In this document: positions 1,119 to 17,314 of the stretch, piece by piece
Layout: each line of letters starts with the position of its first letter
Position numbering within the stretch: the first letter of the stretch is position 1
Source of the DNA: Geotalea uraniireducens Rf4
GTDB taxonomy: Bacteria; Desulfobacterota; Desulfuromonadia; Geobacterales; Geobacteraceae
Length of the DNA stretch: 32,000 nt
Direction of reading: 5' to 3'
Assembly (NCBI RefSeq): GCF_000016745.1
Contig: NC_009483.1
Coordinates: 3,210,001 to 3,242,000 of the forward strand
Translations under genes and position numbers: made by a program
The notes under the pieces: model-generated
Told to the model about the DNA's origin: nothing
What the model saw: the letters and a program-made list of their open reading frames with translations, nothing else
The model's database searches: none

Positions 1119-1130
1119 AAGCTCTCACAA

Positions 1131-2656: not shown

Positions 2657-2716
2657 TTAACAGGGATGAACAACTGCGCTGCCTACGATTTTAGGAGTGA
2701 CGTAGCTACGTTTCAT
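2657..2716 (-). CDS. Hypothetical 19-aa small ORF (MKRSYVTPKIVGSAVVHPC)
   Basis: The ATG is preceded by GAAAGGAGGTG with a 5-nt spacer, the best Shine-Dalgarno I saw in the window. A TAA stop is followed by a stable hairpin, repeat copy 1 and the T8 terminator. I recognise no homologue. Confidence 0.3.
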   Translation of the reverse strand: MKRSYVTPKIVGSAVVHPC

Positions 2717-3231
2717 CAGAGCACCTCCTTTCTTTGATGTGCATATAAGTCATCTTTGTCTGCTTCTCTCCGGTTAAGTTGAAGGTGGTGATATATGGTA
2801 CTTGCGCTGCTCATGGATTTTTATATTTTGGCCATGGTCGGCTTAATAAAAGTGCAATAAATATACCGACTTCCCCGGGCACTGGGGATGGGGTCTTCAA
2901 AAGACAAATACGCAGAGCCGCACCCTTCGTTAAAACACATTAAACATTGACGAATCACAGGTCAGGACAGCCATGATTATTTATGACCGACAACCGGCTA
3001 TCAAATGCGTAAGCCTGGTAATCACGCTTACGTCGACACAGGGAAGGAACGAATTGTCAGCCTTCAAACGATGTCACCCCTGCGATTTCACCAGATGGGT
3101 CGATGCGAACAATCTGCTCCAACCTTGTTTCAAGCCGGACGAACGCAAAGTTATTTCTTTTAATATAGACAACTCTCAGATAGAATACGGTAATTTACGA
3201 TCGATACCGACGGGATTGGAGAAAAGACTTG

Positions 3232-4161
3232 ATGCGACCAGGAATGATGACCATCTACCGCACCAGCATATACTTCATGCTGACATCCATTGTTTTCTCG
3301 ACTCTCCTATTGTCCGGCTGCAAAGACACGAAAAAAAGACCGGTCATGCGTATCGGTTACATGAATTGCAACAACGAGCAGGAAACAATGCAGCGTTTTC
3401 TCCCCCTGACCCGCTATCTGTCGGAAAAGCTCGACGTGGAATTCGTCGCTGTGCCGGTGGATACCCACGATTTTGAGAAGCGGTTCCGCGACGGAGAATT
3501 CACTTTTACCCATACCAATTCACTCATCTACATCATCCTCCGGGAAAACTACAAACTGGGATTGATCGCGTCGGACAAGCGCGGCAATTTCGGCGCCCGC
3601 ACCGGCGGCGCCATCATCGCCCGCAAAGGTAGCGGCATCACCAAACTGTCCGATATTCGGGGCAAGCGAATGGTCTTCGGGCCGATGCTGGCCCCCACCG
3701 GTTATCTTGCCGAATACGACCTGATGCTGCGGTCCGGCATCGACCCCGAGAAGGATCTGGCCTATTATGCCATCCCGTCCGGTTCATACAAGCATGAAAA
3801 GCTTGTCTACGGTGTCCTGTTCGGTCAATATGACGTTGCCGCGGCGCCTCTCCTCGATCTCGAAGTCATGACGCGGGAAGGGAAAATAGCTCCCGATGAT
3901 TTTGTCATCCTGGCGCAAACGCCCATCATCCCCTACTGCACGTTCGGCGCTGACAGCAAAACCGACCCGAAACTGATAGCCAAATTCCGCCAGGCCTTAC
4001 TGGATCTTAAACCTTCGGATACCGTCGAGATCAACGGCGAACGGATCAAAGTCCTCAAGGCCGCATGGGCCGACGGTTACGAAGAGCTGTTGGACAGCGA
4101 CTACAACACCATCCGTGACATGGCCCGACGGGTCAATATGCCCCCCTATCAGAAGTATTGA
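3232..4161 (+). CDS. PhnD-family (phosphonate/phosphite-type) periplasmic substrate-binding lipoprotein, with no ABC partner genes nearby
   Basis: The signal peptide ends in the lipobox LLLSGC. The body (RIGYMN...THTNSL...GKRMVFGP..PTGYL) is typical of the PhnD/Phosphonate-bd fold. The first ATG is at 3232; the ORF track starts at an in-frame TTG at 3229. Confidence 0.8.
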   Translation: MRPGMMTIYRTSIYFMLTSIVFSTLLLSGCKDTKKRPVMRIGYMNCNNEQETMQRFLPLTRYLSEKLDVEFVAVPVDTHDFEKRFRDGEFTFTHTNSLIYIILRENYKLGLIASDKRGNFGARTGGAIIARKGSGITKLSDIRGKRMVFGPMLAPTGYLAEYDLMLRSGIDPEKDLAYYAIPSGSYKHEKLVYGVLFGQYDVAAAPLLDLEVMTREGKIAPDDFVILAQTPIIPYCTFGADSKTDPKLIAKFRQALLDLKPSDTVEINGERIKVLKAAWADGYEELLDSDYNTIRDMARRVNMPPYQKY

Positions 4162-4167
4162 GGCAGC

Positions 4168-4713
4168 ATGTTTAAGGACAGGTTCGATAGGCTGCTCTGG
4201 CTTCTGCTGGCCGTGGCAATAACAGCCCTGCTGATTCTACTGGGAACACACTCGCCCGGCGGCGGCAACGACCGTTCTGCAACCGGCCTGAACAAGGCGC
4301 TGGAGCGGGAAATGGCTTACCAGGCACGGGTGGCGCTGCTGCAGAAGCTCTACGCCCCTGTTGAGAATCTGTGCAAAAGCGGTGACCTCCAGGGGGCGCT
4401 GTTCAGACTTGATGAACTGGCCCGCACCTATCCAGGCGAGGCGCACAGTCATATATTAAAAGGAGAGATCCTCCACCAGCTGGGCGCCAGGGAAGAAGCT
4501 ATCGCCAGTTACGTGCAGGGAATCAAGCTCAGCGGCGATTACATCGACAAGAAAAGCCCCCTTTCCAGACATGACGACATTCGCCGCCTGGTCGATGAAG
4601 GGTTGAAAGATATCGGCGGCCGCGCCAAGGCAAATCCCGGCAACGCTTCGCTGGCTGCTGCCATGAAGAACGTCTATTACCTGCAAAGCCGTCTGGCCGG
4701 CGGTTGTGAGTAA
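4168..4713 (+). CDS. Membrane-anchored TPR-like protein
   Basis: An N-terminal TM segment (LLWLLLAVAITALLILLG) is followed by TPR-like helices (GEAHSHILKGEILHQLGAREEAIASYVQGIKL). GAGG lies 4 nt upstream, and 6-nt and 2-nt gaps separate it from its neighbours. Confidence 0.65.
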   Translation: MFKDRFDRLLWLLLAVAITALLILLGTHSPGGGNDRSATGLNKALEREMAYQARVALLQKLYAPVENLCKSGDLQGALFRLDELARTYPGEAHSHILKGEILHQLGAREEAIASYVQGIKLSGDYIDKKSPLSRHDDIRRLVDEGLKDIGGRAKANPGNASLAAAMKNVYYLQSRLAGGCE

Positions 4714-4715
4714 CC

Positions 4716-5780
4716 ATGAATCTGCGAGATCGCCATTTTTGGATCATATTAGCAACCGGCGCCCTTCTGGGAACGCTCGGCGTTTTGCTGGCCGTTTGGG
4801 GGAACCCGGAGAATTCAGGGATCTGCGTCTCCTGCTTCATCGAAAACAGCGCCGGTGCGCTCGGTTTTCATGATAACCCGCGTATGCAGTACCTGCGCCC
4901 GGAACTGATCGGTTTTGTGCTCGGTGCAGCTGTAAGCGCCATCGCCGCCCGCGAATTCCGCTCACGAGGCGGGAGAGCGCCGCTGCCGAGGCTTGTTTCC
5001 GGAATCTTCCTGATGGTGGGCTGTGCAGTATTTATCGGCTGCCCGATCAAGCTTTTTCTCCGCCTGACTGCCGGCGATCTTACCGCAGCGGCCGGGGTAA
5101 TCGGCCTGGTGGCGGGAGTTTGGGCAGGTCTCCGGGGGCTTTCCAATGGCGTTGAGCTGGGGACTCACCAGCGGGAACAAGGGGGGAGCGGCCTGCTGGT
5201 TCCTGTATTTTTCGCGCTGCTGCTTGTATTCCTGATCTTCCGTCCCGGCTTTGTACTCTCCTCCGACAAAGGAAGCGCCGCCCAATACGCTCCATGGGCA
5301 ATCTCCCTGGGTGTCGGCCTGCTGCTCGGAGCCCTGGCCCAGCGCAGCCGCTTCTGCATTACCGGCAGCGTGCGCGACGCCATGCTCATGGGGCTGAGAT
5401 CTTACATGCCATGGGGATTCCTGGCTTTCTGCGGCGCGGCGGTGATGTTCAACATCAGCTCCGGCCGCTTTCACCCTGGCATGTTCGGGCAGCCGGGCTC
5501 CCATCCGGACCATATCTGGAGCTTTCTCGGCATGGGCCTGGTCGGGTGGATCTCGGTAATAATCGGCGGTTGCCCGTTTCGACAGTTGATCAAGGCCGGC
5601 GAGGGGGATGCGGACGCGGGGCTGGTAGTGCTGGGGATGTTCATCGGTGGAGCGTTGGTGCAATCCTGGGGCATAGCAGCCACGGCAGCAGGGGTCTCAT
5701 TTTACGGCAAAGTGGCGGTCCTTGCCGGTTTCACGTTTATCCTGGCAACGTCTCTGCTCTGTCGCGAACGGATAGCGTAG
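4716..5780 (+). CDS. yedE: YedE/YeeE-family membrane protein (sulfur/selenium transport family)
   Basis: Polytopic 354-aa ORF with the Cys-containing re-entrant motifs of the family: GICVSCF, FIGCPIKL, SRFCITGS, IGGCPFRQ. Confidence 0.8.
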   Translation: MNLRDRHFWIILATGALLGTLGVLLAVWGNPENSGICVSCFIENSAGALGFHDNPRMQYLRPELIGFVLGAAVSAIAAREFRSRGGRAPLPRLVSGIFLMVGCAVFIGCPIKLFLRLTAGDLTAAAGVIGLVAGVWAGLRGLSNGVELGTHQREQGGSGLLVPVFFALLLVFLIFRPGFVLSSDKGSAAQYAPWAISLGVGLLLGALAQRSRFCITGSVRDAMLMGLRSYMPWGFLAFCGAAVMFNISSGRFHPGMFGQPGSHPDHIWSFLGMGLVGWISVIIGGCPFRQLIKAGEGDADAGLVVLGMFIGGALVQSWGIAATAAGVSFYGKVAVLAGFTFILATSLLCRERIA

Positions 5781-5819: not shown

Positions 5820-7109
5820 TTACACATTACGTGCAACATCGGAACGATAACGCAGGGTATAGGCAAGGATCGATACCATTAATCCCAGTATGGAAAGCGC
5901 CGCCAGTAGCGTGTAAACCGCGTCAACCCCCTTGCTGTCGACTATGTAACCTCCCACCAGTGTGGCAATAGACCCCATTCCCATAATAAAGAAGAAGTTC
6001 CAGCCATACCCTTTGCCGTAGGATCTTTTTGCGGTATAGGAAGCAATGAGAGAGTTCTGAATCGGCTGCCAGCCGTAAAAGACCAGAGTAAAGACAATAC
6101 TGGCAACGATCAAAGAAGTATTGGTGTAACGGCTTATATAGTACGCGGCCGGTATGACAATCAGGTAGATGCCGATATGGACCAGTTCCGGGTGCCGGGC
6201 TCTGTCGGAAAGGTAGCCGCCAAGCCACTGGCCGAAGATCCCCAGTGTAAGTATCGCCGAAGTCAGCATTCCGGCGACCATGACCGGCTGGTCGGCGGTG
6301 GATACGAAATTGATCTCCTGCTGGAACAGGGCCGGAAAGAATGTCAGAGACCCCCGATAAACGAAGCCGAACAGGATCGACCCGCCGTAAAGAACCAGCA
6401 GCGCTACGGGAATCTTCGAAACTGGCGGTGTGACTGCCGGCTCCGCAGCAGTCGACGCTTCCGCACCGATTGTGACGGCGCCGCTCGCGTTGGACAGGGG
6501 GCGGAACGGCCGCCAGGAAAGAATTCCCATCAGGTCGGCCCGCGACCACTCATTCTCCCCGTCAATGACGGTTATCTGGACAACGAAGGCAAAGATGAGC
6601 CCCAATATGCCGAAGGCAATGTACGCGGCTCGCCAGGTATCGAACAACATCACCATTGTTCCGGCAAAGAGAGGAGCGAGGGAAAGCCCCAGGTTGCCCA
6701 ATATCCCGTGAAGACTCAGCGCCTTACCTTTTTTTGCGATGTGGTGAGCGATAAGAGAAAGACCGGACGGGTGATAGATGCTTGCCGTAAGCCCAAGGAG
6801 CGCATAGGCAAAACCGAAGCTCCAGCTCCCCGGCGACAGTCCGACAAGTATGGCGGAGATCGCCATTCCCCAAAGGCCTAAGACCAGCATCTTCTTGGCG
6901 CCAAGCCGGTCAGCCATGATGCCTGCAGGGATGGAGCCTACACCAAAAAGGCAGTATCCCACATTTATGATGGCCCCGAGGGCAAAGAAGCCGAGGGACT
7001 GATCGCCGGCCAGCACCACGAGAACCGCAGGGAGCAGGGTCATATAGCCGTGATTTACGCCGTGCGACAAACTGGCAAGCCAGGCTACTTTCCGTTCGTT
7101 GGCATTCAT
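5820..7109 (-). CDS. MFS transporter, last gene of the seven-gene operon
   Basis: 429-aa ORF with about 12 TM segments and MFS-like loop motifs (GIMADRLGAKK). ATGA overlap with the upstream gene at 7106-7109. Confidence 0.85.
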   Translation of the reverse strand: MNANERKVAWLASLSHGVNHGYMTLLPAVLVVLAGDQSLGFFALGAIINVGYCLFGVGSIPAGIMADRLGAKKMLVLGLWGMAISAILVGLSPGSWSFGFAYALLGLTASIYHPSGLSLIAHHIAKKGKALSLHGILGNLGLSLAPLFAGTMVMLFDTWRAAYIAFGILGLIFAFVVQITVIDGENEWSRADLMGILSWRPFRPLSNASGAVTIGAEASTAAEPAVTPPVSKIPVALLVLYGGSILFGFVYRGSLTFFPALFQQEINFVSTADQPVMVAGMLTSAILTLGIFGQWLGGYLSDRARHPELVHIGIYLIVIPAAYYISRYTNTSLIVASIVFTLVFYGWQPIQNSLIASYTAKRSYGKGYGWNFFFIMGMGSIATLVGGYIVDSKGVDAVYTLLAALSILGLMVSILAYTLRYRSDVARNV

Positions 7110-8086
7110 TGTCCCGCCTCTTTGACCCGCTCTTTCAGGAACGGCTCCACCAGGATGCTTGCCACGGACGGATCAGAATGCCGATCATAGATAAGCTCGT
7201 TGATCTTATCCCGGCTGGTGGTGCCGAACCAGTTGTTGCGAGCATCCACATCCACGTTCTGCTCATCGGCTATGGCCAGATTATATTCTTTGTTGTCGTA
7301 GATGTTGTTTCCGGCGATGCGGACACCTGCCGACTTATAGAAGTATATTCCCTTCAGGTTTTCGGATATCTCGTTGCCGGTTATCTCAGCGGTACTCTGC
7401 TCCTTGGGCCAGATGCCGAAGAATTTGTTGTCGGTAATGGTGTTGCGGGTGATCACGGCGCGGGAACTGCGGAAGGTGATTCCCCCCTTGTTGTTGTGGA
7501 TATAATTAAAGTTGGCGGATATATCCGCAGGCCGTCCGAACCAGGGAACTCCCGGCGCTTCTTCTTCCTTCTTGACGCTGATGGCGACGGCGTTCTTGGT
7601 GAATTCATTGTGGTCAATGCGAGCGCTGGCGCCATGGGCGTGGATGCCGTTGTAGGCGAAGAGTATCTTGCAGTACTCGATCACATTACCGTCGCCGCCA
7701 AGGAGATTGATGGCCCCCCAGTCAGCCGGCTTTGCATCCCGCTCCGCAGAGGTAAAGACGATGATGTTGTCTTTCGTTCCCCGGGCGATGAGCCGCCCTT
7801 GCACGATAAGCTCCGCCTGCGGGTAATAGGGGGAGTCGATGCCGAACATGTTGCGATCGCTCTTTTCATCAATTCTGACGAACTTCACGGTCGTGCCGGG
7901 GGCAATCGTCAGGGTGACGCCGGCGGGAACGAAGACGTCGCCGGTTACCTTGATGGTCCCTTGCCAGACCGTATCCTTCTGAATGGTGGTCTTGCCGATC
8001 TCAACCCCTTTATCGGTACAGCCTGACAGGGGAAAGAGCAGGCTCAAGAGCAGTGCGGAAAAGATGGTTCGTAAGAGCGACGTCAT
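7106..8086 (-). CDS. NosD-like right-handed parallel beta-helix lipoprotein (single module)
   Basis: Lipobox FPLSGC. The entry motif is DTVWQGTIKVTGDVFVPAGVTLTIAPGTTVKF, followed by repeated N/G-rich beta-helix turns (ITRNTITDN, ITGNEISEN, IAGNNIYDN). The C-terminus is NNWFGT...ILVEPFL. Confidence 0.75.
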   Translation of the reverse strand: MTSLLRTIFSALLLSLLFPLSGCTDKGVEIGKTTIQKDTVWQGTIKVTGDVFVPAGVTLTIAPGTTVKFVRIDEKSDRNMFGIDSPYYPQAELIVQGRLIARGTKDNIIVFTSAERDAKPADWGAINLLGGDGNVIEYCKILFAYNGIHAHGASARIDHNEFTKNAVAISVKKEEEAPGVPWFGRPADISANFNYIHNNKGGITFRSSRAVITRNTITDNKFFGIWPKEQSTAEITGNEISENLKGIYFYKSAGVRIAGNNIYDNKEYNLAIADEQNVDVDARNNWFGTTSRDKINELIYDRHSDPSVASILVEPFLKERVKEAGQ

Positions 8087-8649
8087 CAGCGCTTTCCTCC
8101 TGCCTGGGCACGTTTTTTCCGGATATTTTGCAACGCTGCCAGGACAATTTTCTTCTTGCCGTTTTCAAGTTCCCGGTTGACTCCCCGCTGCAGCAGGAGG
8201 CTATTCACCGCCAGGGCTTCCCGGTAGCACTTTTCCGCCACTGCGAGGTTGCCCAGTTGCTCATGGGCGAATCCCAATCCGTAATGAACCATGGTGTCCT
8301 CACGGCGCAAGACTATGGCCTTCGTGAACCATGCCACAGCCTCCTTGTAGTTGCCGGTTTTACAGCTCACCAGCCCCATGCCGTCGTGAGCATCAAAATC
8401 GCGGGGAGATACCTTCAGCACCTCGCCGAACTGCCATGCGGCCTCACCCAGTTTGTTCTTCCGATAGAGGACGATCCCCAGCTTATTGCGTGTCTGGATA
8501 TCCTTCGGGTTGATCTCCACGACAATCCGGTATTCGGTCTCAGCCACCGAATCAGGGAGAAATCCGGTTTCGGGGTGGGCGCTGCTCACCGCGGGAAGGG
8601 CCAGGAGCAGGGCGCCGGCAAGAGATATGAAGCGGCAAATTCTGTTCAT
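8086..8649 (-). CDS. Periplasmic TPR repeat protein
   Basis: A signal peptide (ALLLALPAVSSA) is followed by TPR units (NKLGIVLYRKNKLGEAAWQFGEVLKVSP, HDGMGLVSCKTGNYKEAVAWFTKAI, HYGLGFAHEQLGNLAVAEKCYREAL). Start and stop overlap the neighbouring genes on both sides. Confidence 0.7.
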   Translation of the reverse strand: MNRICRFISLAGALLLALPAVSSAHPETGFLPDSVAETEYRIVVEINPKDIQTRNKLGIVLYRKNKLGEAAWQFGEVLKVSPRDFDAHDGMGLVSCKTGNYKEAVAWFTKAIVLRREDTMVHYGLGFAHEQLGNLAVAEKCYREALAVNSLLLQRGVNRELENGKKKIVLAALQNIRKKRAQAGGKR

Positions 8650-9470
8650 TTCACACCAAAGTGGGTCAAGGAGGAGTACAGGGTAACACCCCCGATAAGG
8701 GTAACGAGCGCGGCACTGGCAAAGGCGACCTTCGGCGCATAGCGTTCCGTGTCGATGAAGCGGCTGGTGGCCCGGACTCCATTGACAACGGCAAGGCCGA
8801 TGGCAACAAGGGATGCGGCCAGTCCCAGACTGAAAATCAGCACCAGAACAAGCCCCTTGCCGATATCACCCACCGACGCAGAAGCAAGGAGGATTGCCAG
8901 GGCAGCCGGACAGGGAACAATGCCGCCGGAAATGCCGAGTAGAATCAGGCCGGTCAGGCCTAACTTCTGGTCAACGCCGTGTCCGTGGTTATGGCCGTGG
9001 TCGTGGTTGTGTCCGTGGTTATGATCATGGTCATCGCCATGATTGTGCGTATGGCCGTTGCCATGGGAATGACCGTGGTCGTGGCCGTGGTGATGGTGCC
9101 CCCCTCCGAACAGGTGGAAGTGGCCATGGGCACGTGACGGATCACGCATACCGATCCAGCGCGACCTTAGCATCCAGAGACCGATGCCGAGGATGATGAT
9201 GCTCGATACGATGCCGAGATAGCCGTGGAGTTCCTGATCAGTAAAGTAGCGGGAAGACGCCTTGGCAAGCAGTCCGAGAAGGATGATGCTGAACGAGTGG
9301 GTAAAGGTCACGACCAGACCGAGAATCACGGCGTCGATGCTCCTTCCCCGGGAGGCGACAAGATAGGCCGCAACAACAGACTTCCCGTGTCCGGGTTCAA
9401 GGGAATGGGCGGCGCCCAACAATAAAGCGGCACTATAGATACCGAACATGCCGAAGCTACTTACATCCAT
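8646..9470 (-). CDS. rcnA: RcnA/NicO-family nickel-cobalt transporter with a long His-rich loop
   Basis: The motifs HSLEPGHGKS and GGIVPCPAAL match my memory of E. coli RcnA (LHGLEPGHSKT, GGLIPCPAA). The central loop is HGHFHLFGGGHHHHGHDHGHSHGNGHTHNHGDDHDHNHGHNHDHGHNHGHG. I chose the ATG at 9470 (GGAG 5 nt upstream); the longest ORF starts at 9593 but would overlap the upstream gene by 137 nt. Confidence 0.85.
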   Translation of the reverse strand: MDVSSFGMFGIYSAALLLGAAHSLEPGHGKSVVAAYLVASRGRSIDAVILGLVVTFTHSFSIILLGLLAKASSRYFTDQELHGYLGIVSSIIILGIGLWMLRSRWIGMRDPSRAHGHFHLFGGGHHHHGHDHGHSHGNGHTHNHGDDHDHNHGHNHDHGHNHGHGVDQKLGLTGLILLGISGGIVPCPAALAILLASASVGDIGKGLVLVLIFSLGLAASLVAIGLAVVNGVRATSRFIDTERYAPKVAFASAALVTLIGGVTLYSSLTHFGVK

Positions 9471-10383
9471 AAAATCTCCTGAAAAAAGCAAATATAGCGC
9501 CAAGCCCCATAACGGCAAATCCGCTGAATACATAAGGACGGCCCGGGTCTCTGACAATCTGTATCCCGGCAAAAGGCCTTCCGTTTTCGTCACTGCCTGT
9601 CAGGGTATTATAGAAATAGAGCCCCTGCCACCTGAAAGGTCCGTTCACTTCCGCCGTACCCGCCGCAAGAGTCTTATCCTTATCCGAGAGATGAAGATCG
9701 ATCCAACACCTTTTCAGGATAGGGCTCTGATACGACACCAGTTTAAATTCATAGGGGAAATCCGCGGGAAGGTTGTTCATCCCGGAGGTATCGGCAGTGC
9801 CCATTACCCGGCCCTGCCTGTAAACTGTGAGATTGAGATTGAGACCGGCCGGATCAAAGGCACCGGCGGCAACCCGGTAGTCGCCCAGCTTGAAACTCTC
9901 GCCGGTACGGAGGGTAAAGAGAGCGAATTTTTCGTTACCGCGCAACACCCCTACCCGTACAGGTACCGGGTAAAACTCTCGATTTATCCGCTTGACGGCA
10001 AGCTCCATACCAAGCGGAACATCCTGCTCCCTGTCCCAGCGGTAAACCTGATCAACGGAGGACCCTTCATAAATATTGACCGTGGCCACATAGCCGAATG
10101 AGGTGACAATACAGCCCGCCAGAGTCAGCAACACCCCCCCATGCAGAATCAGGGTAGATTTTGCCAGGGTCTTCCACCGCCGCAAGGTGCAACAGAGAAG
10201 GTTTAACGCAAACAATCCGATCAGCCCAACAAACGGGGGACTGGAATAGATAGCTTTCGATTCGGTGAAGGACCCGGGAATCGCGGCCAGACATATTGCA
10301 ATAAACAGCGCAATAGCCAGTTCGGTGGAAGCTAGATATTTTGCTACAGTTATATACATCTGCTTGGGAGACAAACGCGACAA
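9457..10383 (-). CDS. ResB-like (cytochrome c biogenesis Ccs1-like) membrane protein, short form, with no ResC/CcsA partner
   Basis: The N-terminus (YLASTELAIALFIAICLAAIPGSF), second TM (LFALNLLCCTLRRW), His-containing third TM (LILHGGVLLTLAG), beta-rich periplasmic part and C-terminal TM all match the ResB layout. The start is a TTG at 10383; an ATG at 10359 is the alternative. Confidence 0.55.
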   Translation of the reverse strand: MSRLSPKQMYITVAKYLASTELAIALFIAICLAAIPGSFTESKAIYSSPPFVGLIGLFALNLLCCTLRRWKTLAKSTLILHGGVLLTLAGCIVTSFGYVATVNIYEGSSVDQVYRWDREQDVPLGMELAVKRINREFYPVPVRVGVLRGNEKFALFTLRTGESFKLGDYRVAAGAFDPAGLNLNLTVYRQGRVMGTADTSGMNNLPADFPYEFKLVSYQSPILKRCWIDLHLSDKDKTLAAGTAEVNGPFRWQGLYFYNTLTGSDENGRPFAGIQIVRDPGRPYVFSGFAVMGLGAIFAFFRRFYGCK

Positions 10384-10510
10384 AACCTTTCATTCCGAAT
10401 CTACGGTGCGACCACGAACAGCTTTTTCTTAAAGTACCGCGTGCAACCGTTAACGGCAAGCACCAATTCTTCGGCTGCCTGCGTATCACCGCCACAACCT
10501 GCCATAGCGT

Positions 10511-11218
10511 TTATTTTAATGTTATTTCAACGTCAATTGCCATATCTATTTTGCCGGGAACCAGGGACAGAGCCCTGCCCGGCGAAACAGCCCGACCCGG
10601 TGGAAAAACCGTTGCCGAGCCAAGGAAATAATTGCCTGGTGGGAGATACAGGACATAACGCCCTGTTTCATCCGTCCAGCCTGAGATGTAATCCGGCAAT
10701 TGCGCTATCTCTTTCCCCCGATGGGCAATCACGTAAGCATTTGCAACCGGCGCGCCGCTGCCGTCCAGTACACGGCCGCTTATTTTCACATGGTCATCCC
10801 TGGTTCGGTGCTTGTTCCGGGCCACTTCCCGGATATCGGCAACAGTGAAATCCTGCTCTGCAACCCGCTCCGCAGGGGGCTCGATCACCACCGGTTCGCC
10901 GGAATGCCTGGTCCCCAGCAAAAGCGGACCGAACTTCACACCTTGCCTGACCCTTGCCACAGCCCAGTATCTCCCCACCGGCAGCTCGATAGCGTATTGT
11001 CCGTCCCGGTCCGTCTTGGGGGTAATGAATTCGGCGGGGCGCCTGGTCTTTGCGCTGTCGTAAATGAAAACCTCGGCCCCCTCGACCCCCTGGCCGGCCG
11101 GATCCAGCACTTTGCCGCGCAGGACGAAAGTCTCGCCGGCCAAGGCGTTGGACCAGTCAAAAACTGCGGCTGCTGCGACGGCAAGAATCATTATGACGGC
11201 CAACCATTGCCGTTTCAT
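10511..11218 (-). CDS. Secreted protein with two carboxypeptidase-regulatory-like (transthyretin-like) domains
   Basis: A signal peptide is followed by two internal repeats: LRGKVLDPAGQGVEGAEVFIY...TDRDGQYAIELPVGRYW and ISGRVLDGSGAPVANAYVIAH...TDETGRYVLYLPPGNYF. Confidence 0.6.
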   Translation of the reverse strand: MKRQWLAVIMILAVAAAAVFDWSNALAGETFVLRGKVLDPAGQGVEGAEVFIYDSAKTRRPAEFITPKTDRDGQYAIELPVGRYWAVARVRQGVKFGPLLLGTRHSGEPVVIEPPAERVAEQDFTVADIREVARNKHRTRDDHVKISGRVLDGSGAPVANAYVIAHRGKEIAQLPDYISGWTDETGRYVLYLPPGNYFLGSATVFPPGRAVSPGRALSLVPGKIDMAIDVEITLK

Positions 11219-13701
11219 TGTCCCACCGCCTGACCTGCGGATATCGGCTTCTGAAGGAACGGCTCATACAGGATGATGCCGATTCCCGGCTCTTTTCGCC
11301 CGTCGAACAGGGTTTCGGCCGGATCTCCCCCGCCCCACCAGTTCTCCCTGGCGTTCACGTCTTCATTGTTAAAATCGCCGACCCTGATATTGTAGCCGCT
11401 GTTGGCAAACAGGTTGTTCTTGCTGATGGTCAGCCCGCCCCCCTTTTCTCTGACGAACACACCGGTTTCATTCCTCGTGATGACATTTTCAGTGAAGATG
11501 CCGTTGCCCATGTAGGAACGGATGCCGATGGTGTTGTCCGTAAAGAGGCAACGGGTGACCGTTACCGGACCGCTGCGGAAGCGCATCCCGCCGTAGTTGC
11601 CATGGATGCTGCTATCCGACAGGGACAGGTTGGTGAAGTGACTGTGAACCCCCCACGTTGCGTACTCAAAGACCGCGTAGGCAATGGCGCTGTTGTTGGC
11701 ATGCTCCAGCAACACCTCATCCCAGGCGCCGGCTTCCTTTTTCTGCAACGAGGTAAACGTGATCTCACGCGTTTTTTCTCCCCTGGCGAGAAGTTTGCCG
11801 TTGACTGCCAGACCGGCGCCTTCTGCAAACTTAATCTTTGTTCCCGGCAGGACCGATAGCGTCGCATCTTTTCCAACATCAAGCTTGCCGGTCACGACGA
11901 TCGCCCCTTCCCAGGTGGTGGAAACAAGCACATCCCGCAGCGGCCATACGTAGGGTAGCGGCGTCTGCATTGCACCGTCATGGGTGACTTTGCCACGCAT
12001 CGGCTCATCAGAGCGGTCCAGGATAACCCGCTCCGCATCCGCCCCGCCCCACCAGTTTGCCGGCGCATCCACGTCGTTTTTTCCTTCCAGATCAATGGCG
12101 TAGAGACCGTTGCGGACGAAATTGTTACCGGTTATCAACCCGGAAAAAGATATAATTCCCATGCCGCGTTCGCCGTTACCGGCAATCTGGTTCCCCCTGA
12201 TGCCGGCCCTTACATCCTGAACGCTCATCCCGTTAATGCCGTTATTGCCGATAAAATTATCTGTGATCTCTATGTTGTCCGCATTTTTCAGAGAAAAACC
12301 GGCTTCGGTATTATTGGTGATAACGTTACGGCCAAAACTGCCGTAATAGGCGTCAGCCACCAGCAACCCGAACCGGTTGCCGTCAAACAGGTTCCCTTCC
12401 ACGACCGCCGCGCCTTCCCGCAGCCGCAGACCTTCCTTCAGATTTCTGAGGAACCTGTTGCCCCTCACCTGAATGTCGTTCCGGAAAAAATTTCCCCCCA
12501 GGTAGTTGTTACTGACGACATTGCCGGCAAAATCCACCTCGGAATCCCTTCCCTGGATACCGCTTTTATTGCCGTACAGCCAGTTACCGCGCATTGTCAC
12601 CGTCGATTCCTGGAACTGGATCGCCCGGTAATTGTTTCTCAGTACCGAACTTATGACCGCCACGTTGGAGAAGTGAAAATGCAGTCCTCGATAGGCGTCC
12701 TCTATCTGACAATACTCCAGCAGGTTCTGGGCCCCATCGCTGTTCATGATATTGATGGCGTCCCAATCCCCCTGCCGCCCGGTTTTCCCGGCGGAGCGGA
12801 AAATGATCGGCGCTTTGGCATTCCCCTTGGCCAGCAGGAGCCCCTGGATCAACAGACCGTTTTCGCCGATGCCGTCACCGTTGGTATCCCTCTTCCCGAA
12901 CTCGACGATTGTTCCCGGCATTATCACAAGCCTGCTTCCATCCGGCACCCGGATAATCCCCTTCACCTCTATCCGCCCCTGCCAAATGGTATCGCCAAGC
13001 AGCACCTCATCCCCATAAATCCGGGCGACTGCCGGCCCCGCTCCGCTTGTGTAAGACCTCTCTCCGGGGTGTTCCCTGAAACTGCCCGTATAAAAGTCCT
13101 TTTTCCGGTTGTCCCTGACTGTGCAGTCACGACTGTCAACCTTTGCCTCCTTATAGAGAAAGAGGCCGTAGTCGTTGTCCGTAATCAGGCAGGCAGTAAC
13201 CGTCAGACTGCTCTTTGCGCCCAAGGCGGTAATTCCGTAACGGTTTCCCCTGAGTTCCGAATCTGCCAGATGGACCGTACCGTCAACGACATAAAGGGCA
13301 GACTCGGCATGCATGATCCGACAAGACCGGAGGTCGGCGCGGCCGCCATCAACGATGATACCGGCCCAGTTCCCAGCCTTATTTTCCCCGGCTGAGCTGA
13401 ACAGCACCGGCGACTTTGCGGTCCCCTCAACCTTGAGGGTTCCCCGCACCGTAATCTCCGTAAGCGGCGACATGTACTCGGGATCGGTCTTGGTGCTCTC
13501 CGACGTGGCCACCCGGACAACCGTCCCCGGCCTGATGATCAGGGTAACGCCGGCCGGCACCAGGATATCGTCCTGAAGCGCAACCTCGCCCTGCCAGACC
13601 GTATCCCTGGTGATCACCCCGGCAGCGGCAAAGGTTGGAAACAGAAGGCAGAGTGCAATGATGAGAAACCTGATTGTCTGAATAGAGAATTTGATGGTCA
13701 T
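11215..13701 (-). CDS. Large secreted protein with three NosD-like parallel beta-helix modules, first gene of the operon
   Basis: The ATG at 13701 gives MTIKFSIQTIRFLIIALCLLFPTFAAAG (signal peptide). There are three entry motifs (DTVWQGEVALQ..., DTIWQGRIEVKG..., TTWEGAIVVTGK...). Each is followed by beta-helix turns, and the last two modules end in NWWGG... The longest ORF (GTG at 13803) overlaps the predicted -10 box. Confidence 0.75.
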   Translation of the reverse strand: MTIKFSIQTIRFLIIALCLLFPTFAAAGVITRDTVWQGEVALQDDILVPAGVTLIIRPGTVVRVATSESTKTDPEYMSPLTEITVRGTLKVEGTAKSPVLFSSAGENKAGNWAGIIVDGGRADLRSCRIMHAESALYVVDGTVHLADSELRGNRYGITALGAKSSLTVTACLITDNDYGLFLYKEAKVDSRDCTVRDNRKKDFYTGSFREHPGERSYTSGAGPAVARIYGDEVLLGDTIWQGRIEVKGIIRVPDGSRLVIMPGTIVEFGKRDTNGDGIGENGLLIQGLLLAKGNAKAPIIFRSAGKTGRQGDWDAINIMNSDGAQNLLEYCQIEDAYRGLHFHFSNVAVISSVLRNNYRAIQFQESTVTMRGNWLYGNKSGIQGRDSEVDFAGNVVSNNYLGGNFFRNDIQVRGNRFLRNLKEGLRLREGAAVVEGNLFDGNRFGLLVADAYYGSFGRNVITNNTEAGFSLKNADNIEITDNFIGNNGINGMSVQDVRAGIRGNQIAGNGERGMGIISFSGLITGNNFVRNGLYAIDLEGKNDVDAPANWWGGADAERVILDRSDEPMRGKVTHDGAMQTPLPYVWPLRDVLVSTTWEGAIVVTGKLDVGKDATLSVLPGTKIKFAEGAGLAVNGKLLARGEKTREITFTSLQKKEAGAWDEVLLEHANNSAIAYAVFEYATWGVHSHFTNLSLSDSSIHGNYGGMRFRSGPVTVTRCLFTDNTIGIRSYMGNGIFTENVITRNETGVFVREKGGGLTISKNNLFANSGYNIRVGDFNNEDVNARENWWGGGDPAETLFDGRKEPGIGIILYEPFLQKPISAGQAVGQ

Positions 13702-13801
13702 ATCCGTGAGGGGTATCCTGAGACTCAACGCAATACAGACAGCGACAAAAAAACGAAAAAGTCTTTCGATGCACAAGCAGGCGTCGTTACCTAACTTTGT
13801 C

Positions 13802-13830
13802 ACTATAACTTATCTTAATAACAAAGACAA
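13802..13830 (-). promoter_or_regulatory. Candidate sigma70 promoter of the beta-helix/RcnA operon
   Basis: The minus strand reads TTGTCT-17 nt-TATAGT, about 100 nt upstream of the ATG at 13701, in the AT-rich spacer after actE. Confidence 0.4.
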
Positions 13831-13916
13831 AATAATTTGCCCCAATCTTGACGCCCGTAAATCCATAGGCCGACCAGATCAAGGTGGCCGTGCAGGCAGG
13901 AGGAAACCCGGCCCTC

Positions 13917-14372
13917 CTATTTGCGGGTCCGCAGGAAATTGACCAGACTCCACCGCTCCCGCGGCATAAGCTTGTCCTGGAATGGGGGCATGCGGCCGAA
14001 GCCGAAGGTGGTCGCCTTGAAGATATCGGAGTCGCTCAGGCTCTGCAGCAGGTCATGGTCGAGGCCGGGCGGAGGAGGAGAGAGCTTTAGCCCGACCGGG
14101 CCGCGCCGGTCCGAAGTGTGGCCGTGGCACATGGCGCAATTGATATCGAAGAGCGTTTTGCCCTGCGCAATTGATGCGGCAGTCGGGGCGACAGGATTTT
14201 GCAGCACGGCCTCTCGCGAGACGATCTCCTTGCCGGAAATCGGCACGCTGCCTGCGGGCGTGGCCGGAACCGGCGCCTTATAGGCCTTGTAGGAAGGCTG
14301 CTCGTCCATCCACAGGGCCGCCGTCAGCAAAGGTACAGCGGCCAGAATGACCAGTTTCGCAATGCCTTTCAT
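13917..14372 (-). CDS. actE: ACIII-like monohaem cytochrome c subunit (ActE-like)
   Basis: MKGIAKLVILAAVPLL is a signal anchor. There is a single CAMCH haem motif and a downstream Met (GFGRMPPF). ATGA overlap with actD at 14369-14372. The longer ORF (to 14552) adds only an Arg-rich, non-protein-like extension. Confidence 0.75.
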   Translation of the reverse strand: MKGIAKLVILAAVPLLTAALWMDEQPSYKAYKAPVPATPAGSVPISGKEIVSREAVLQNPVAPTAASIAQGKTLFDINCAMCHGHTSDRRGPVGLKLSPPPPGLDHDLLQSLSDSDIFKATTFGFGRMPPFQDKLMPRERWSLVNFLRTRK

Positions 14373-14953
14373 AGCGTCGCCTCTGCGATGAGCCTGATGG
14401 CGCCGGCTTCCCTCATGATCTCCTCCGCCAGGCTTTTCTGCTCTTTGACGGGAACGGAGGCGATGGTGCCAATGCACTCTCCCGGCGTTGTTCCGCGCCC
14501 GCATGCCACAATCTCTCCGCCGGCGTGGGCGGTAACGCTTATGCCGATGCACCCCTCGGCGATTGCCGGGTCATAGAGGCGTTTTCCCAAGGGAGGAAGC
14601 CTCATTTCCAGGAACATCCCCACCATGGTGCCGACAATGGCGAAGAGCATGGTCAACTCGAAGGTGACGATGCCGGTCGGGTAAAAGGCGATGATCGGCT
14701 TGTCGCCGGTCTGCACCGGATAAAGCCAGGCGGTGCCGGCGGCCAGGAGAAAACCGGCGACCACGCCGACAATGCCTCCGGCCAGGGCCAGCCAGCGGAA
14801 CCACGAACGCCGGTCGGTCTTAACCAGCACGCCGTCCGGATAGGAAACGGAGGTGAGCGAGGTGATCTGCGCTTCCGTGAACCCTGCCCTGAGCAGCCCC
14901 TCCACCCCCCTACCCGCACTCTCGATATCCCTGAAAATCCCGAGGATCTCCAT
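14369..14953 (-). CDS. actD: ACIII-like subunit ActD (DUF3341-type membrane protein)
   Basis: MEILGIFRDIESAGRGVEGLLRAGF... is followed by two TM helices, as in ActD. GGAGGAA precedes the ATG at 14953, 4 nt after the actC stop. Confidence 0.7.
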   Translation of the reverse strand: MEILGIFRDIESAGRGVEGLLRAGFTEAQITSLTSVSYPDGVLVKTDRRSWFRWLALAGGIVGVVAGFLLAAGTAWLYPVQTGDKPIIAFYPTGIVTFELTMLFAIVGTMVGMFLEMRLPPLGKRLYDPAIAEGCIGISVTAHAGGEIVACGRGTTPGECIGTIASVPVKEQKSLAEEIMREAGAIRLIAEATL

Positions 14954-14957
14954 ATGA

Positions 14958-16376
14958 CTATTCCTCCCCCGCGACAGTCGGCACCTCGGCGCGGCCAAGC
15001 GGGACACGAGCCTCGCGAACTTCAAGCTCCCGCACGTCGGTCACCGCCACAATCGGAAACAGCTTGGCAAAGAAGGTGTAAAGCAGGGCAAAGCCGGCCA
15101 GAGCAGCGATGTTGACGGAGATCTCCACCCACGAGGGGCGGTAGCTCCCCCAGATGAACGGCATGTTCTTGTGGGAAAGCGATGGCACGATGATCAGGAA
15201 ACGCTCGATGAACATGGCGACGTTGACCAGCAGGGAAACAGACAGCATCACCCCGATGGAACGCCGCAGCCTCTTGAAGCACATTGCCGTGATCGGCAGC
15301 AACGAGTTGCCCACAAGCATCAAGAGCAGCAAGAAGGTATATTTGTTTGCCATGAAGCTGAAGACCTCCCACTCGATCGGTTCATGGGCGTACCAGGTGG
15401 TCTGGACCTCGACGAAGTAGGCATAAGACCAGAGGAGCGAGATGACCAGCAAAATCTTCCCCATGTTGTCGAAGTGGAGCGGGGTCAGGTACTCCTCCAG
15501 GTGGAATGCGCGACGGATGATGATCATCAGGGTGATCACAGCGGCCACCCCGGAGAGAATGGCTCCGATGACGAAATAAGGGGGAAAGATGGTGCTGTGC
15601 CAGCCGGGGACCACGGTGACGGCGAAGTCCCAGGCGACTATGGAGTGCACCGAGACAGCAACCGGGATGATCAGGGCCGCCATCAGGGTCGAGGCCTGGT
15701 GGTAGACCACCCACTCGCGGGCCGTTCCCCGCCACCCCATGGCCAGGACGGTATACAGTTTCCTCCGCCAGCCGTGCGAACGGTCCCGGACCACCGCCAG
15801 GTCGGGGAGCATCCCCAGGTAAAGAAAGATACTGCTGCCGATGATGTAGCTCGTGATCGCCGTAACGTCCCACAGAAGCGCCGAGCGGAAATTGGGCCAG
15901 AGCCCCCGCTGGTTGGGATAGGGTATCAGGTAGTAGAAGATCCAGTTGCGCCCCAGGTGGATAAGCGGAAAGAGGCCGGCCACGGTGATGGAGAAAACTG
16001 TCATCGCCTCGGCGGCACGCAGGATCGGCCGGCGCCAGTTGGCCCGGGAGAGGCGCAGGATGGCCGAGACCATGGTCCCGGAATGGGAGAGCCCGACCCA
16101 GAAGACGAAACCGGTGATGTAGAAACCCCACATGACCGGCCGGTCCTTGCCGGTCACGTACATGCCGTGCGTCACCTGCCAGGTGAAGGCGAACAGGCCC
16201 CAGGCCACCACTGCGCCGAGAAAGAAGGCGAGCAGATACCAGCGCCGGGTCGGGGGGCGCAGCGAGGAGAGGAGCTCGTCGTTCAGCTGTCCGACGGTTT
16301 TGGTCTCATTAGTCGCATGGGTCCCATTGGTCTTATGGGACTCATGCGACGAATATGACTCATGGGACTCAGACAT
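14958..16376 (-). CDS. actC: NrfD/PsrC-like quinone-interacting membrane subunit (ActC-like)
   Basis: 472-aa ORF with about 10 TM segments of NrfD-type sequence. It has an unusual Ser/His-rich N-terminal tail (SESHESYSSHESHKTNGTH). An 8-nt overlap joins it to actB2. Confidence 0.85.
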   Translation of the reverse strand: MSESHESYSSHESHKTNGTHATNETKTVGQLNDELLSSLRPPTRRWYLLAFFLGAVVAWGLFAFTWQVTHGMYVTGKDRPVMWGFYITGFVFWVGLSHSGTMVSAILRLSRANWRRPILRAAEAMTVFSITVAGLFPLIHLGRNWIFYYLIPYPNQRGLWPNFRSALLWDVTAITSYIIGSSIFLYLGMLPDLAVVRDRSHGWRRKLYTVLAMGWRGTAREWVVYHQASTLMAALIIPVAVSVHSIVAWDFAVTVVPGWHSTIFPPYFVIGAILSGVAAVITLMIIIRRAFHLEEYLTPLHFDNMGKILLVISLLWSYAYFVEVQTTWYAHEPIEWEVFSFMANKYTFLLLLMLVGNSLLPITAMCFKRLRRSIGVMLSVSLLVNVAMFIERFLIIVPSLSHKNMPFIWGSYRPSWVEISVNIAALAGFALLYTFFAKLFPIVAVTDVRELEVREARVPLGRAEVPTVAGEE

Positions 16377-17082
16377 GCTCCCTGCCCCCTCCCTTGAGGT
16401 AATAGACCGAAGGGTGCGTACCCAGATGCTCCAGCAGCCTAAAGCGGCGGGGGCTGCGGGAGAGCCGCGCCACCCGGCTCTGCGGATCGGCCATGTTGCC
16501 GAAGACGATTGCCTCGGCCGGACAGGTCTGGGCGCAGGCCGGCTGCACCTCGCCGTCGCGGACCATGCGTCCTTCCCCCTTAGCCTCTTCCTTGGCCCGG
16601 CGGATGCGCTGGACGCAGAAGGTGCACTTTTCCATCACCCCTCTGGAGCGCACCGTGATGTCCGGAGAGAGCTGGTTGTCGAGAGGCTTCGGCCAATCAT
16701 GGGGGTAGAAGTTGAAAACCCGCACGGCATATGGACAGTTGTTGCCGCAGTAGCGGGTGCCGACGCAGCGGTTGTAGACCTGGCCGTTCAGGCCGTCGGG
16801 GTTATGGTAGCTGGCGTAGACCGGGCAGACCGGCTCGCAGGGGGCATCGTGGCAGTGCTGGCAAAGCACCGGCAGGAAGCGTACCCGCACGTCCGGGTAT
16901 TCCCCCACCCAGAAACGCTCGATGCGCAGCCAGTGCATGTCGCGCCCCTCGGCAATCTCCTTTTTATCACAGAGCCCCACGTTGTTCTCAGCCTGGCAGG
17001 CGACTACGCAGGCGCCGCAGCCGGTGCAGCGGTCGAGGTCGATGACCATTCCCCATTTGTATGGACTCGTCATTTTTTCCAT
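16369..17082 (-). CDS. actB2: 4Fe-4S ferredoxin-type subunit (ActB2 / NrfC-like)
   Basis: Cys clusters CTGCGACVVAC, CQHCHDAPCEPVCP, CVGTRYCGNNCP and CTFC...C...CP are typical of four-cluster NrfC/PsrB proteins. Confidence 0.85.
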   Translation of the reverse strand: MEKMTSPYKWGMVIDLDRCTGCGACVVACQAENNVGLCDKKEIAEGRDMHWLRIERFWVGEYPDVRVRFLPVLCQHCHDAPCEPVCPVYASYHNPDGLNGQVYNRCVGTRYCGNNCPYAVRVFNFYPHDWPKPLDNQLSPDITVRSRGVMEKCTFCVQRIRRAKEEAKGEGRMVRDGEVQPACAQTCPAEAIVFGNMADPQSRVARLSRSPRRFRLLEHLGTHPSVYYLKGGGREHV

Positions 17083-17140
17083 ATGACCTTCTATCTTTTG
17101 GCAAACAAAATCTCTGAACCGCCCGCTCCTTTCAGTCGCT

Positions 17141-17286
17141 CAAGACGCAAAGTACGCAAGAAAAGACAAATACTTTTCAGAGACAAAGTCTTTGCTTTGG
17201 CACAAAATCAGGCGAAAAGCATTTCGCCTTTGCTTTGCTTTCCTTTGCTTTCCTTTGCTTTCCTTTGCATCTTTGCGTCTTTGCGG
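17141..17286. repeat. MITE-like hairpin element in the actB1-actB2 spacer, built from GCAAAG-type short repeats
   Basis: The left arm is AAGACGCAAAGTACGCAAGAAAAG and the reverse complement of the right arm is AAGACGCAAAGATGCAAAGGAAAG. A 10-bp unit TCCTTTGCTT occurs 3 times in tandem (17241-17270). There is an inner hairpin GGCGAAA-AGC-ATTTCGCC. Confidence 0.6.
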
Positions 17287-17314
17287 TTCAAAGGTTTCTT
17301 GAATATCCGTTGGT

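Follow-up and report, generated by a model that had tools for sequence, protein, structure and literature searches.

The stretch of DNA studied here, hereafter called the window, is a 32-kb segment of the Geotalea uraniireducens Rf4 genome (NC_009483.1, positions 3,210,001 to 3,242,000), and the element of interest in it is an operon of seven genes, all on the minus strand and numbered g1 to g7; coordinates are counted from the first letter of the window. The first gene, g1 (11215-13701), encodes a secreted protein of 828 amino acids (aa) built of three right-handed beta-helix modules; it is followed by g2 (10511-11218), for a secreted tandem CarboxypepD_reg (transthyretin-like) protein; g3 (9457-10383), for a short CcsB/ResB-like protein with four transmembrane helices and a periplasmic beta domain; g4 (8646-9470), for an RcnA-like porter of the NicO family; g5 (8086-8649), for a secreted TPR protein; g6 (7106-8086), for a single-module beta-helix lipoprotein with an LSGC lipobox; and g7 (5820-7109), for an MFS transporter. 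An earlier reading, made from the sequence alone, had taken these seven genes as a complete unit. Comparison with related loci leads us to a wider picture, in which they are very probably a trimmed local version of a larger, modular envelope cluster that is conserved well beyond this genome.

The operon itself is sound. The ORF table places seven consecutive open reading frames (ORFs) on the minus strand, at 11215-13803, 10511-11218, 9457-10383, 8646-9593, 8086-8649, 7106-8086, and 5820-7109, with the ends that the sequence-only reading had given, and direct reading of the letters bears out its five overlapping junctions and single gap. Stop and start codons share an ATGA at the g1/g2 (11215-11218, a 4-nucleotide (nt) overlap), g4/g5 (8646-8649), and g6/g7 (7106-7109) junctions and a TGATG at the g5/g6 junction (1 nt, position 8086); g3 and g4 overlap by 14 nt (9457-9470), given a g4 ATG at 9470, and g2 and g3 are separated by 127 bp (10384-10510) without overlap. 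As for the initiation codons that could be placed in more than one way, that of g1 is likely the ATG at 13701, giving 828 aa, because the orthologues measure 820-835 aa and the gene call in the closely related locus L051 is also 828 aa; that of g4 is likely the ATG at 9470, because the identical 14-nt overlap is called in L051, L053, and L057. Pfam and NCBIfam searches on the seven proteins reproduced all the domain labels proposed earlier, and nosZ, nosF/Y, and resC are absent from the window, as had been remarked. We consider the seven genes a real, tightly coupled operon.

A candidate sigma-70 promoter, TTGTCT-17-TATAGT, which matches the consensus at 9 of 12 positions, lies at 13802-13830 on the minus strand. 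The hexamers claimed at this place are indeed present, but the match alone is weak, such matches being common in the region (9 found for 5.1 ± 2.2 expected). The stronger evidence for a promoter is its position, together with the conservation of the surrounding block in L051 and in L005 (86% identity in the latter). Folding of the 5′ untranslated region of g1 gave no significant structure (z = 0.2), and an Rfam scan of the whole window at gathering thresholds returned no matches, so that neither a NiCo nor a cobalamin riboswitch was found before g1, g4, or cbiM.

Related loci were gathered with a profile of the ResB-like g3 run over one genome per species, complemented by look-ups of individual homologues. 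This yielded 53 non-redundant loci, mostly from Geobacteraceae plus several metagenome-assembled genomes (MAGs) of Nitrospirota, in which the components were mapped by tblastn; the absences recorded in this set fall mostly at contig ends. g1 and g2 are found in 48 and 49 of the 53 loci, respectively, and a gene that the window does not have, x185, encoding a 185-aa OpuAC-like lipoprotein between g2 and g3, in 47. The position after g3 can be filled in two ways: 36 loci carry an ArsP_1 permease (with a CAC motif) and a His-rich cupin in place of NicO, and the RcnA-like g4 is present in 11, with the TPR gene g5 in 12. The MFS gene g7 was detected in 5 of these g3-anchored loci and g6-like matches in 19, some of the latter being paralogues located upstream of g1. 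The clusters also include genes from outside the operon, namely the GeoRSP trio (PqqD-family, radical-SAM, and SPASM proteins; 43 to 46 of the 53 loci) and a unit of three genes, d1 (PhnD-like), d2, and d3 (YedE), found in 38 to 40.

The exact composition of the window operon recurs in only 4 of the 53 loci; the fixed stoichiometry read from its overlapping junctions is, thus, not borne out for the seven genes as a unit. Nor do the ends of the operon mark the limits of the system, since two elements beyond them, the YedE unit that converges on g7 (3229-5780) and the gene of a small peptide (2657-2716), are cluster members as well. Across the 53 loci, the constant core is made of g1, g2, usually x185, and g3, followed by either the NicO cassette or ArsP_1 and the cupin; the GeoRSP trio usually comes after this permease cassette, and d1, d2, and YedE complete the cluster. 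In Geobacter sulfurreducens PCA, the g1 orthologue is GSU2911, and the rest of the cluster falls at about GSU2901-2910, judging by consecutive accession numbers, with g3 as GSU2908 and the permease as GSU2907; GSU2890/2891, a true ResB/ResC pair, is distinct from it.

The window belongs to a small clade, with L051 and L005, in which x185 has been lost, no GeoRSP genes lie nearby, and the YedE unit is inverted toward the MFS gene. The 127-bp gap between g2 and g3 (10384-10510) is explained by this loss, as it is the very site occupied by x185 (GSU2909) in 47 of the 53 relatives; tblastn found no x185 remnant in it. About 92 bp of the gap (10417-10507) are absent from L051 and show no similarity to x185 or to the rest of the window.

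Two side observations concern the composition of the cluster in other genomes. One exception to the synteny is a ResB-like homologue with 58% identity, encoded at 10001-10918 of L012 with none of the usual neighbours, although a peptide ORF copy is found 2.6 kb off on the other strand. In loci of the L014-L037 type, the space of about 600 bp between the SPASM gene and d1 (for example, L026 15604-16243) codes for a protein resembling FmdE, with an HGHxCPG motif and, at its C-terminal end, CxxC pairs, a putative further metal-binding component of some versions of the cluster.

A search for g6 homologues, which is independent of synteny, added eight further contexts. L053 (G. pickeringii) and L058 (Geomonas) carry the full NicO-type cluster; in L057, a Nitrospirae MAG, 14 genes follow one another on a single strand in the order g1-g2-x185-g3-NicO-TPR-d1-d2-YedE-g6-MFS-PqqD-radical-SAM-SPASM. 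Shorter versions are found in L055 and L059, two Thermodesulfobacteriota MAGs (g1-g2-d2-YedE-g6-MFS); in L060 (the same order with extra paralogues); in L054 from a member of the Desulfobulbaceae (d2-YedE-g6-MFS); and in L056, a delta-proteobacterial MAG (d2-YedE-g6). The genes for d2 and YedE stand alongside g6 in all eight contexts, directly upstream of it in six. Going by this gene order, the most deeply conserved partner is YedE, not the nickel/cobalt porter. The minimal clusters have no g3, metal cassette, d1, or GeoRSP genes, which are, therefore, best seen as additions made in Geobacteraceae and Nitrospirota. Altogether, the cluster ranges over Geobacteraceae, some Nitrospirota, and other Thermodesulfobacteriota.

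The YedE unit thus deserves as much attention as the operon. d3 (4716-5780, plus strand) matches TIGR04112, the model for a putative selenium transporter, with 403.3 bits for a cut-off of 200; it converges with g7 across a 39-bp spacer, and no terminator-like hairpin was found between the two stops. The gene occurs in 38 of the 53 loci and in all eight g6-anchored ones. YedE (TIGR04112) is found almost exclusively in SelD-containing organisms, and it has been predicted to be a selenium transporter (Lin et al. 2015, PMC5322559).

Next to it, d2 (4168-4713, plus strand) encodes a protein of 181 aa with an N-terminal hydrophobic anchor and a predicted helical, TPR-like body; it matches no NCBIfam family, and Pfam gives only weak TPR matches. 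Its C-terminus reads AGGCE-COOH, with Cys180 encoded at 4705-4707. The tail is AGGCE-COOH in Geobacteraceae and AGSCG-COOH in other lineages, and an AG[GS]C[EG] end is present in all 44 full-length d2 orthologues of the fetched loci, even at 25% identity, in 118 of the 120 matches from the database, and in 44 of 52 short 50%-identity representatives; among the eight exceptions, seven end elsewhere and look truncated, and one ends in AGSCGS. The third gene, d1 (3229-4161, plus strand), encodes a PhnD/PtxB-like periplasmic oxyanion-binding lipoprotein (Phosphonate-bd, 1.5e-47) that resembles phosphite, phosphonate, and arsenate binders; its PDB matches are PtxB (1e-9) and ArrX, and the TtrS sensor domain and a putative selenate substrate-binding protein are matched weakly. 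It is present in 40 of the 53 loci, with no ABC partner genes nearby.

On the other side of the spacer, g7 matches MFS_1 (7.6e-36). Its orthologues (46-48% identity) directly follow g6 in L054 and L055, MFS genes do likewise in L057, L059, and L060, and the MFS transporter is the regular partner of g6 outside Geobacteraceae. The window (23369-26104, minus strand) and L051 both have, in the neighbourhood of the cluster, a gene for a sensor kinase with a Tll0287-like domain, and a sensor domain with 50% identity is encoded at 3895-5763 of L054, adjoining the minimal d2-YedE-g6-MFS cluster of this Desulfobulbaceae MAG; this kinase may be a regulator of the cluster.

The genes g3 to g5 bring in the metal side of the system. 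The His-rich loop of g4, announced as about 50 residues long, spans 53 residues (8976-9134) in a protein (NicO, 6.8e-13) that has 28 His in all; the motifs AHSLEPGHGK and GGIVPCPAAL carry the HxxEPGH and PCP signatures, which we take to be those of E. coli RcnA. The loop is kept in all 12 cluster-linked NicO orthologues, with 20-25 His per 50 residues. The 14-nt overlap between g3 and g4 recurs in the six loci with gene calls, without exception, and in five more, about 10 nt at most separate the NicO start from the point where the g3 match ends. g5 travels with this cassette, as 11 of its 12 loci also have NicO; no relationship could be detected between g5 and d2, both of which are small TPR-like proteins. 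The metal half of the earlier proposal, a metal-handling module, is plausible because of the g3/g4 coupling, the conserved His loop, and the alternative metal-type permease found at the same position; its other half, service to an alternative complex III (ACIII)-like complex, does not stand, as will be seen below.

Apart from the window, five loci, namely L015, L022, L047, L056, and L051, have CbiM/CbiQ-type nickel/cobalt uptake genes no more than 10 kb from the cluster, and in L056 these adjoin a NicO gene. In the window, the CbiM(PDGLE)-CbiQ genes of this energy-coupling factor uptake system occupy 306-2242 (minus strand), with a sigma-70-like TTGACA-17-TATAAC at about 2310-2343. These neighbours, together with the absence of a cobalamin riboswitch before cbiM, are a weak hint to nickel or cobalt.

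The protein g1 matches Pfam Beta_helix (1.1e-35) and NosD (3.8e-25) over its three modules; 232 of its 828 positions are at least 95% identical in 45 orthologues, and it carries the conserved motifs C331/H341/H343 and H686/H688. g6, with matches to the same two families, is a paralogue of g1 module 3 (alignments A2 and A3); the two proteins have in common the motif E-Y-C-x-I-E-x-A-Y-x-G-[LIV]-H-x-H, represented in g6 by C139 and H149-x-H151 (7634-7672). g2 matches CarboxypepD_reg in two stretches (5.7e-18), and a weak DUF4198 resemblance recurs among its orthologues. In 23 loci, a paralogous tandem transthyretin-like protein of about 280 aa is encoded upstream of g1, for example, 1-6 kb away in L007, L011, L016, L029, L034, L042, and L044. 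In several loci, a protein of about 665 aa with a g6-like beta-helix match precedes this paralogue, often with a peptide gene of its own. The beta-helix/transthyretin pairing looks like a repeated module.

Taken as a whole, the explanation that we favour is a conserved envelope cluster combining a periplasmic selenium/sulfur relay with a metal supply to the beta-helix proteins; we hold it tentatively, doubt slightly outweighing belief. The mechanism at its heart, in which selenium, and possibly sulfur, would be handled at the periplasmic face, is conceivable on the gene families present, with doubt prevailing more clearly. The oxyanion-type d1 and the C-terminal Cys of the anchored d2 would pass the chalcogen to or from the YedE channel, and the secreted g1 and g6, with the transthyretin-like g2, would be periplasmic binding or processing parts, possibly metal-dependent through their Cys/His-x-His residues. 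g3 would team with a swappable transporter, the His-loop RcnA-like porter here and the ArsP_1 CxC permease with its cytoplasmic cupin elsewhere, and the pair would supply or remove a transition metal needed by the periplasmic proteins. The CSC motif of the SO_0444/SaoE permease family has been proposed to bind metal (bioRxiv 10.1101/2022.07.06.499078). Finally, the MFS transporter would move a small molecule, one candidate being the Cys-terminal peptide presented below or a product derived from it.

Several points weigh against this explanation, and they should be kept in mind. We found no experimental data on any member of the cluster in the literature, and no client enzyme or product was identified for it. 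YedE-family proteins also carry thiosulfate, and the chalcogen may be sulfur as well as selenium; beta-helix folds, for their part, are most often carbohydrate-active. The Cys/His-x-His sites of g1 and g6 were deduced from conservation, the signal peptides and the topology were judged by eye only, and the resemblance of d2 to SoxY is a motif analogy, d2 being predicted to be helical and not of the immunoglobulin-like fold. The metal cassette and the ResB-like g3 are absent from the minimal clusters of other phyla; metal supply is, therefore, not essential to the core function.

The peptide gene opens another way of looking at the cluster. In the window, a 19-aa ORF, MKRSYVTPKIVGSAVVHPC followed by its stop codon, occupies positions 2657-2716 (minus strand), flanked by cbiM and d1, and is preceded by an AGGAGG Shine-Dalgarno sequence. 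It belongs to a family of peptides of 19-20 aa with the consensus MK[KR]xxYxxP[RK][IV]VG[SN]AVVHPC ending at the stop, to which no NCBIfam model matches. In 15 loci, such an ORF is found at most 220 bp upstream of g1 with a consensus Shine-Dalgarno sequence; copies in the relatives include L001 6029-6091, L007 6006-6068, L013 6000-6062, and L053 2728-2790, and further ones precede the paralogous transthyretin-like genes and the genes for the proteins of about 665 aa with a g6-like match. Its variation concentrates at third codon positions (16/16/43 by codon position), which shows the ORF to be translated. A GC-rich, terminator-like hairpin follows nearly every copy.

One copy of an element resembling a miniature inverted-repeat transposable element (MITE) is inserted so as to part the peptide gene from its terminator; L051 lacks this copy. 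The MITE-like element, about 185 bp long and bounded by 18-nt terminal inverted repeats, occupies 2469-2654 and 22319-22474 of the window, the two copies being 95% identical and in opposite orientation, and it also has copies in L012 and L042. A DDE_5-family transposase gene is located at 30322-31608 (plus strand), near the end of the window.

The first-gene position and the hairpin resemble those of pqqA and mftA, which makes the peptide a candidate GeoRSP substrate; it may be this or a regulatory leader peptide. The trio TIGR04302/04303/04304 scores 174, 669, and 506 bits in L001, above the cut-offs, and gave no tblastn match in the window. A 59-aa ORF located before PqqD in L057 was considered as a precursor peptide and rejected, as it is the split-off C-terminus of the MFS protein, and no conserved small ORF was found next to PqqD in any locus.

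One may, thus, imagine the cluster as the source, exporter, and handler of a small modified peptide or of a cofactor derived from a peptide: the “…VVHPC” precursor would be modified by GeoRSP and exported by the MFS transporter or by the ResB-like protein with its permease, the beta-helix and transthyretin-like proteins would process or use the product, and YedE and the metal permease would supply what it binds. Conservation at the protein level, the strong Shine-Dalgarno sequence, the hairpin, the position as first gene before g1 in 15 loci, the extra copies before paralogous genes, and the presence of the trio in 43 to 46 of the 53 loci are all consistent with such a pathway. However, in the window clade, the peptide and the periplasmic genes persist with no GeoRSP within 32 kb, a search of the fetched flanks of the non-Geobacter minimal loci turned up no peptide copy, the peptide is never adjacent to PqqD, and GeoRSP has no known modification chemistry, so that we regard this pathway as unlikely, if not without appeal. 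A combination of the two ideas, which we find distinctly unlikely, would be a trans-envelope trace-element system, where a selenium/sulfur thiol relay running from d1 over the d2 Cys to YedE would work with a GeoRSP-matured “…HPC” peptide cofactor that is exported and used by the beta-helix proteins. The ribosomally made 19-aa peptide, which GeoRSP would mature in most species, would act there as a diffusible thiol or metal-chalcogen cofactor, exported by the MFS transporter or by the ResB-like/permease pair.

The fold of the beta-helix proteins suggests yet another role, in which g1 and g6 would be epimerase- or lyase-type enzymes acting on an exopolysaccharide or surface glycan, the transporters being incidental. 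An AlphaFold2 model of g6, built with database homologues, is a generic right-handed beta-helix with a predicted local distance difference test (pLDDT) score of 91. In structure, it comes closest to the AlgG/AlgE epimerases and to further carbohydrate-active enzymes; when sequence and fold searches of the PDB are taken together, the leading matches of g6 are AlgG/AlgE mannuronan epimerases, a GH87 glucanase, polygalacturonases, and the RbmB lyase. These matches score weakly (E about 4e-4, template-modelling score at most 0.53), and the DPHD catalytic motif of AlgG aligns to AIADEQ in g6 and is, thus, not kept. Moreover, the eleven annotated loci contain no glycosyltransferase, Wzx/Wzy, or polysaccharide export gene, and conservation singles out YedE, metal permeases, and radical-SAM enzymes as the partners, all of which makes glycan processing improbable in our view.

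The same searches bear on the label “NosD-like”. The top 50 Foldseek matches of g6 are carbohydrate-active beta-helices, with polysaccharide epimerases and lyases first, and tailspikes, NosD being absent; a profile of g6 and the g1 modules (A2), run against the PDB with matches accepted up to an E of 1, retrieved nothing but alginate epimerases and a pectate lyase, again with no NosD. The NosD model TIGR04247 has a cut-off of 300 bits, and g1 and g6 reach 23.7 and 33.6. Neither the window nor any annotated related locus contains nosZ, nosF/nosY, or nosL. “NosD-like” is, therefore, a generic beta-helix label only, and the functional analogy drawn from it is not supported.

The ResB-like protein, on its side, calls to mind haem or cytochrome c handling, with g3 and a DsbD_2-like NicO protein serving as haem or reductant handler for nearby multihaem cytochromes. 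Although the Pfam ResB match of g3 (8.6e-12) covers 34 residues only, its profile finds CcsBA structures in the PDB (25vk, 2e-7; 7s9y, 6e-4), and its AlphaFold2 model (pLDDT 87) retrieves 7s9y by Foldseek with an E of 2.4e-12 and a probability of 1.00; by this modelling, g3 is a genuine CcsB/ResB-fold protein. H81 (10141-10143) and C65 are invariant, and H81 aligns to the conserved LxxH His in the N-terminal transmembrane region of the CcsB half, presumably the haem ligand “TM-His1” of CcsBA. A DsbD_2 match of g4 (6.9e-7) and giant multihaem cytochrome genes upstream of g1 in 12 loci go in the same direction. On the other hand, no CcsA/ResC (WWD) partner was found in the window or in the annotated related loci, the gene downstream of g3 being NicO or ArsP_1; g4 has a single Cys, not the CcdA pair, and is interchangeable with ArsP_1; most loci, and the window clade with them, have no cytochrome genes nearby; and the minimal clusters do without g3. 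A role in haem handling is, on balance, quite improbable.

The model of the sequence-only reading was a Nos-like module for nickel/cobalt or metallocofactor assembly that would mature the ACIII-like complex encoded upstream. The upstream genes do belong to the Qrc/ACIII family, as it had recognised: the six of them comprise QrcA-, QrcB-, and QrcC-like genes (87, 297, and 259 bits, all under the curated cut-offs) together with NrfD, ActD, and cytochrome c genes. They lie on the same strand as g1, across a gap of 113 bp with no terminator-like site between; the RcnA-like porter has its His-rich loop, and remnants of the same complex are found upstream of g1 in L005. However, the cluster (window 13842-20556) is missing altogether from L051, a groundwater contig that runs collinear with the window, at 96-97% identity, all the way from the two-component and chemoreceptor genes to cbiMQO: the chemoreceptor gene is followed there directly by g1, and the two sequences match again from 13841 on, a little upstream of the candidate promoter. 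The Qrc/ACIII-like cluster is, thus, a 6.7-kb presence/absence polymorphism between the two, and the operon remains where the complex is gone. In L005, only fragments of the complex are left upstream of g1, split by two inserted PAS-kinase/response-regulator genes, and no Qrc/ACIII-like genes were found in any other related locus examined. The proposed link of the seven genes with the ACIII-like complex is, therefore, not supported; since L051 lacks the complex and keeps the promoter region, the operon does not serve the complex, and, to judge from the conserved block, it has a promoter region of its own, independent of the Qrc/ACIII-like genes. With the NosD family scores falling short as well, we find this model very improbable. 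Weaker still is the view of g4 as a stand-alone rcnA-type nickel/cobalt efflux determinant among unrelated hypothetical genes, which has in its favour the His-rich loop and a match to the nickel/cobalt efflux subfamily NF007454 (150.6 bits, under the curated cut-off of 195) but is contradicted by the conserved g3-NicO coupling, the 14-nt overlap and the g3-NicO-TPR order recurring in annotated Geobacteraceae and Nitrospirota loci (NicO in 11), and is hardly credible.

Coming back to the favoured selenium/sulfur relay with metal supply, its interest lies in the fact that the acquisition and trafficking of selenium in bacteria are still an open question, YedE itself being a prediction of comparative genomics. 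The cluster ties YedE to an oxyanion-binding protein, a Cys-tailed anchored protein, and two beta-helix proteins, as well as to interchangeable metal transporters and a radical-SAM peptide system. It provides GeoRSP, an orphan system, with a candidate for its substrate peptide and gives an example of a CcsB/ResB-fold protein recruited to work without CcsA. Should the trace-element system with its peptide cofactor prove true, it would be the first dedicated bacterial machinery for selenium acquisition and trafficking with a peptide-derived component; should the function be mundane, such as that of a detoxification island, the value would not go beyond annotation for about twelve “hypothetical” families. 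Because the genetically tractable Geobacter sulfurreducens has the cluster (GSU2901-2911), the predictions are testable.

As the sequence-only reading had concluded for the operon, the cluster matches no characterised system; no paper on it or on its gene names was found in the literature, and the locus tags GSU2901-2911 are absent from searchable literature text. Likenesses to known systems are nevertheless numerous. YeeE-YeeD takes up thiosulfate, and YedE-YedF/SirA-like pairs are predicted to handle selenium; as in these systems, the cluster pairs a YedE protein (TIGR04112) with a small protein bearing a conserved cysteine, but d2 is membrane-anchored and helical, with its Cys at the extreme C-terminus and no TusA/SirA fold, and the cluster adds the PhnD-like, beta-helix, and MFS proteins and has no YedF/SirA gene in the annotated loci. 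The sulfur carrier SoxYZ has a C-terminal GGCGG swinging arm, to which the Gly-rich tail of d2 with its penultimate Cys, in a predicted periplasmic protein, is similar as a motif only; d2 has no relation to SoxY in sequence or predicted fold, being TPR-like with an N-terminal anchor, and no Sox genes or SoxZ partner were found in the window or the annotated loci.

With NosDFY/NosL, the cluster shares periplasmic right-handed beta-helix proteins (and the Pfam NosD match) encoded with membrane transport genes, but it is without nosZ, nosF, nosY, and nosL, and g1 has three modules and other conserved motifs. g3 shares with CcsBA/ResBC the CcsB transmembrane core, the transmembrane His, and the beta-rich periplasmic domain; it differs by its length (about 300 aa instead of 450-540 aa), by the lack of CcsA/ResC, by its coupling to NicO or ArsP_1, and by its absence from minimal clusters. 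g4 has the NicO fold, the HSLEPGH and PCP motifs, and the His-rich loop of RcnA, but it stays under the family cut-off and is coupled to a ResB-like protein within a cluster of 10-15 genes that has no RcnR/RcnB. The CAC motif of the alternative cassette is like the CSC of the SO_0444/SaoE ArsP_1 permeases. Like pqqA-E and mycofactocin mftA-F, most relatives of the window have PqqD-family, radical-SAM/SPASM, and SPASM proteins along with a leading ORF of 19-20 aa; the window itself is without the three GeoRSP genes, and the link between the peptide and GeoRSP is a putative one. Only two pieces of the cluster, YedE and GeoRSP, have curated names, and both are functionally uncharacterised. From its gene content, the cluster appears to stand outside these known kinds of system, being neither a Nos system, a system II synthase, a canonical rcnA determinant, nor a Sox system.

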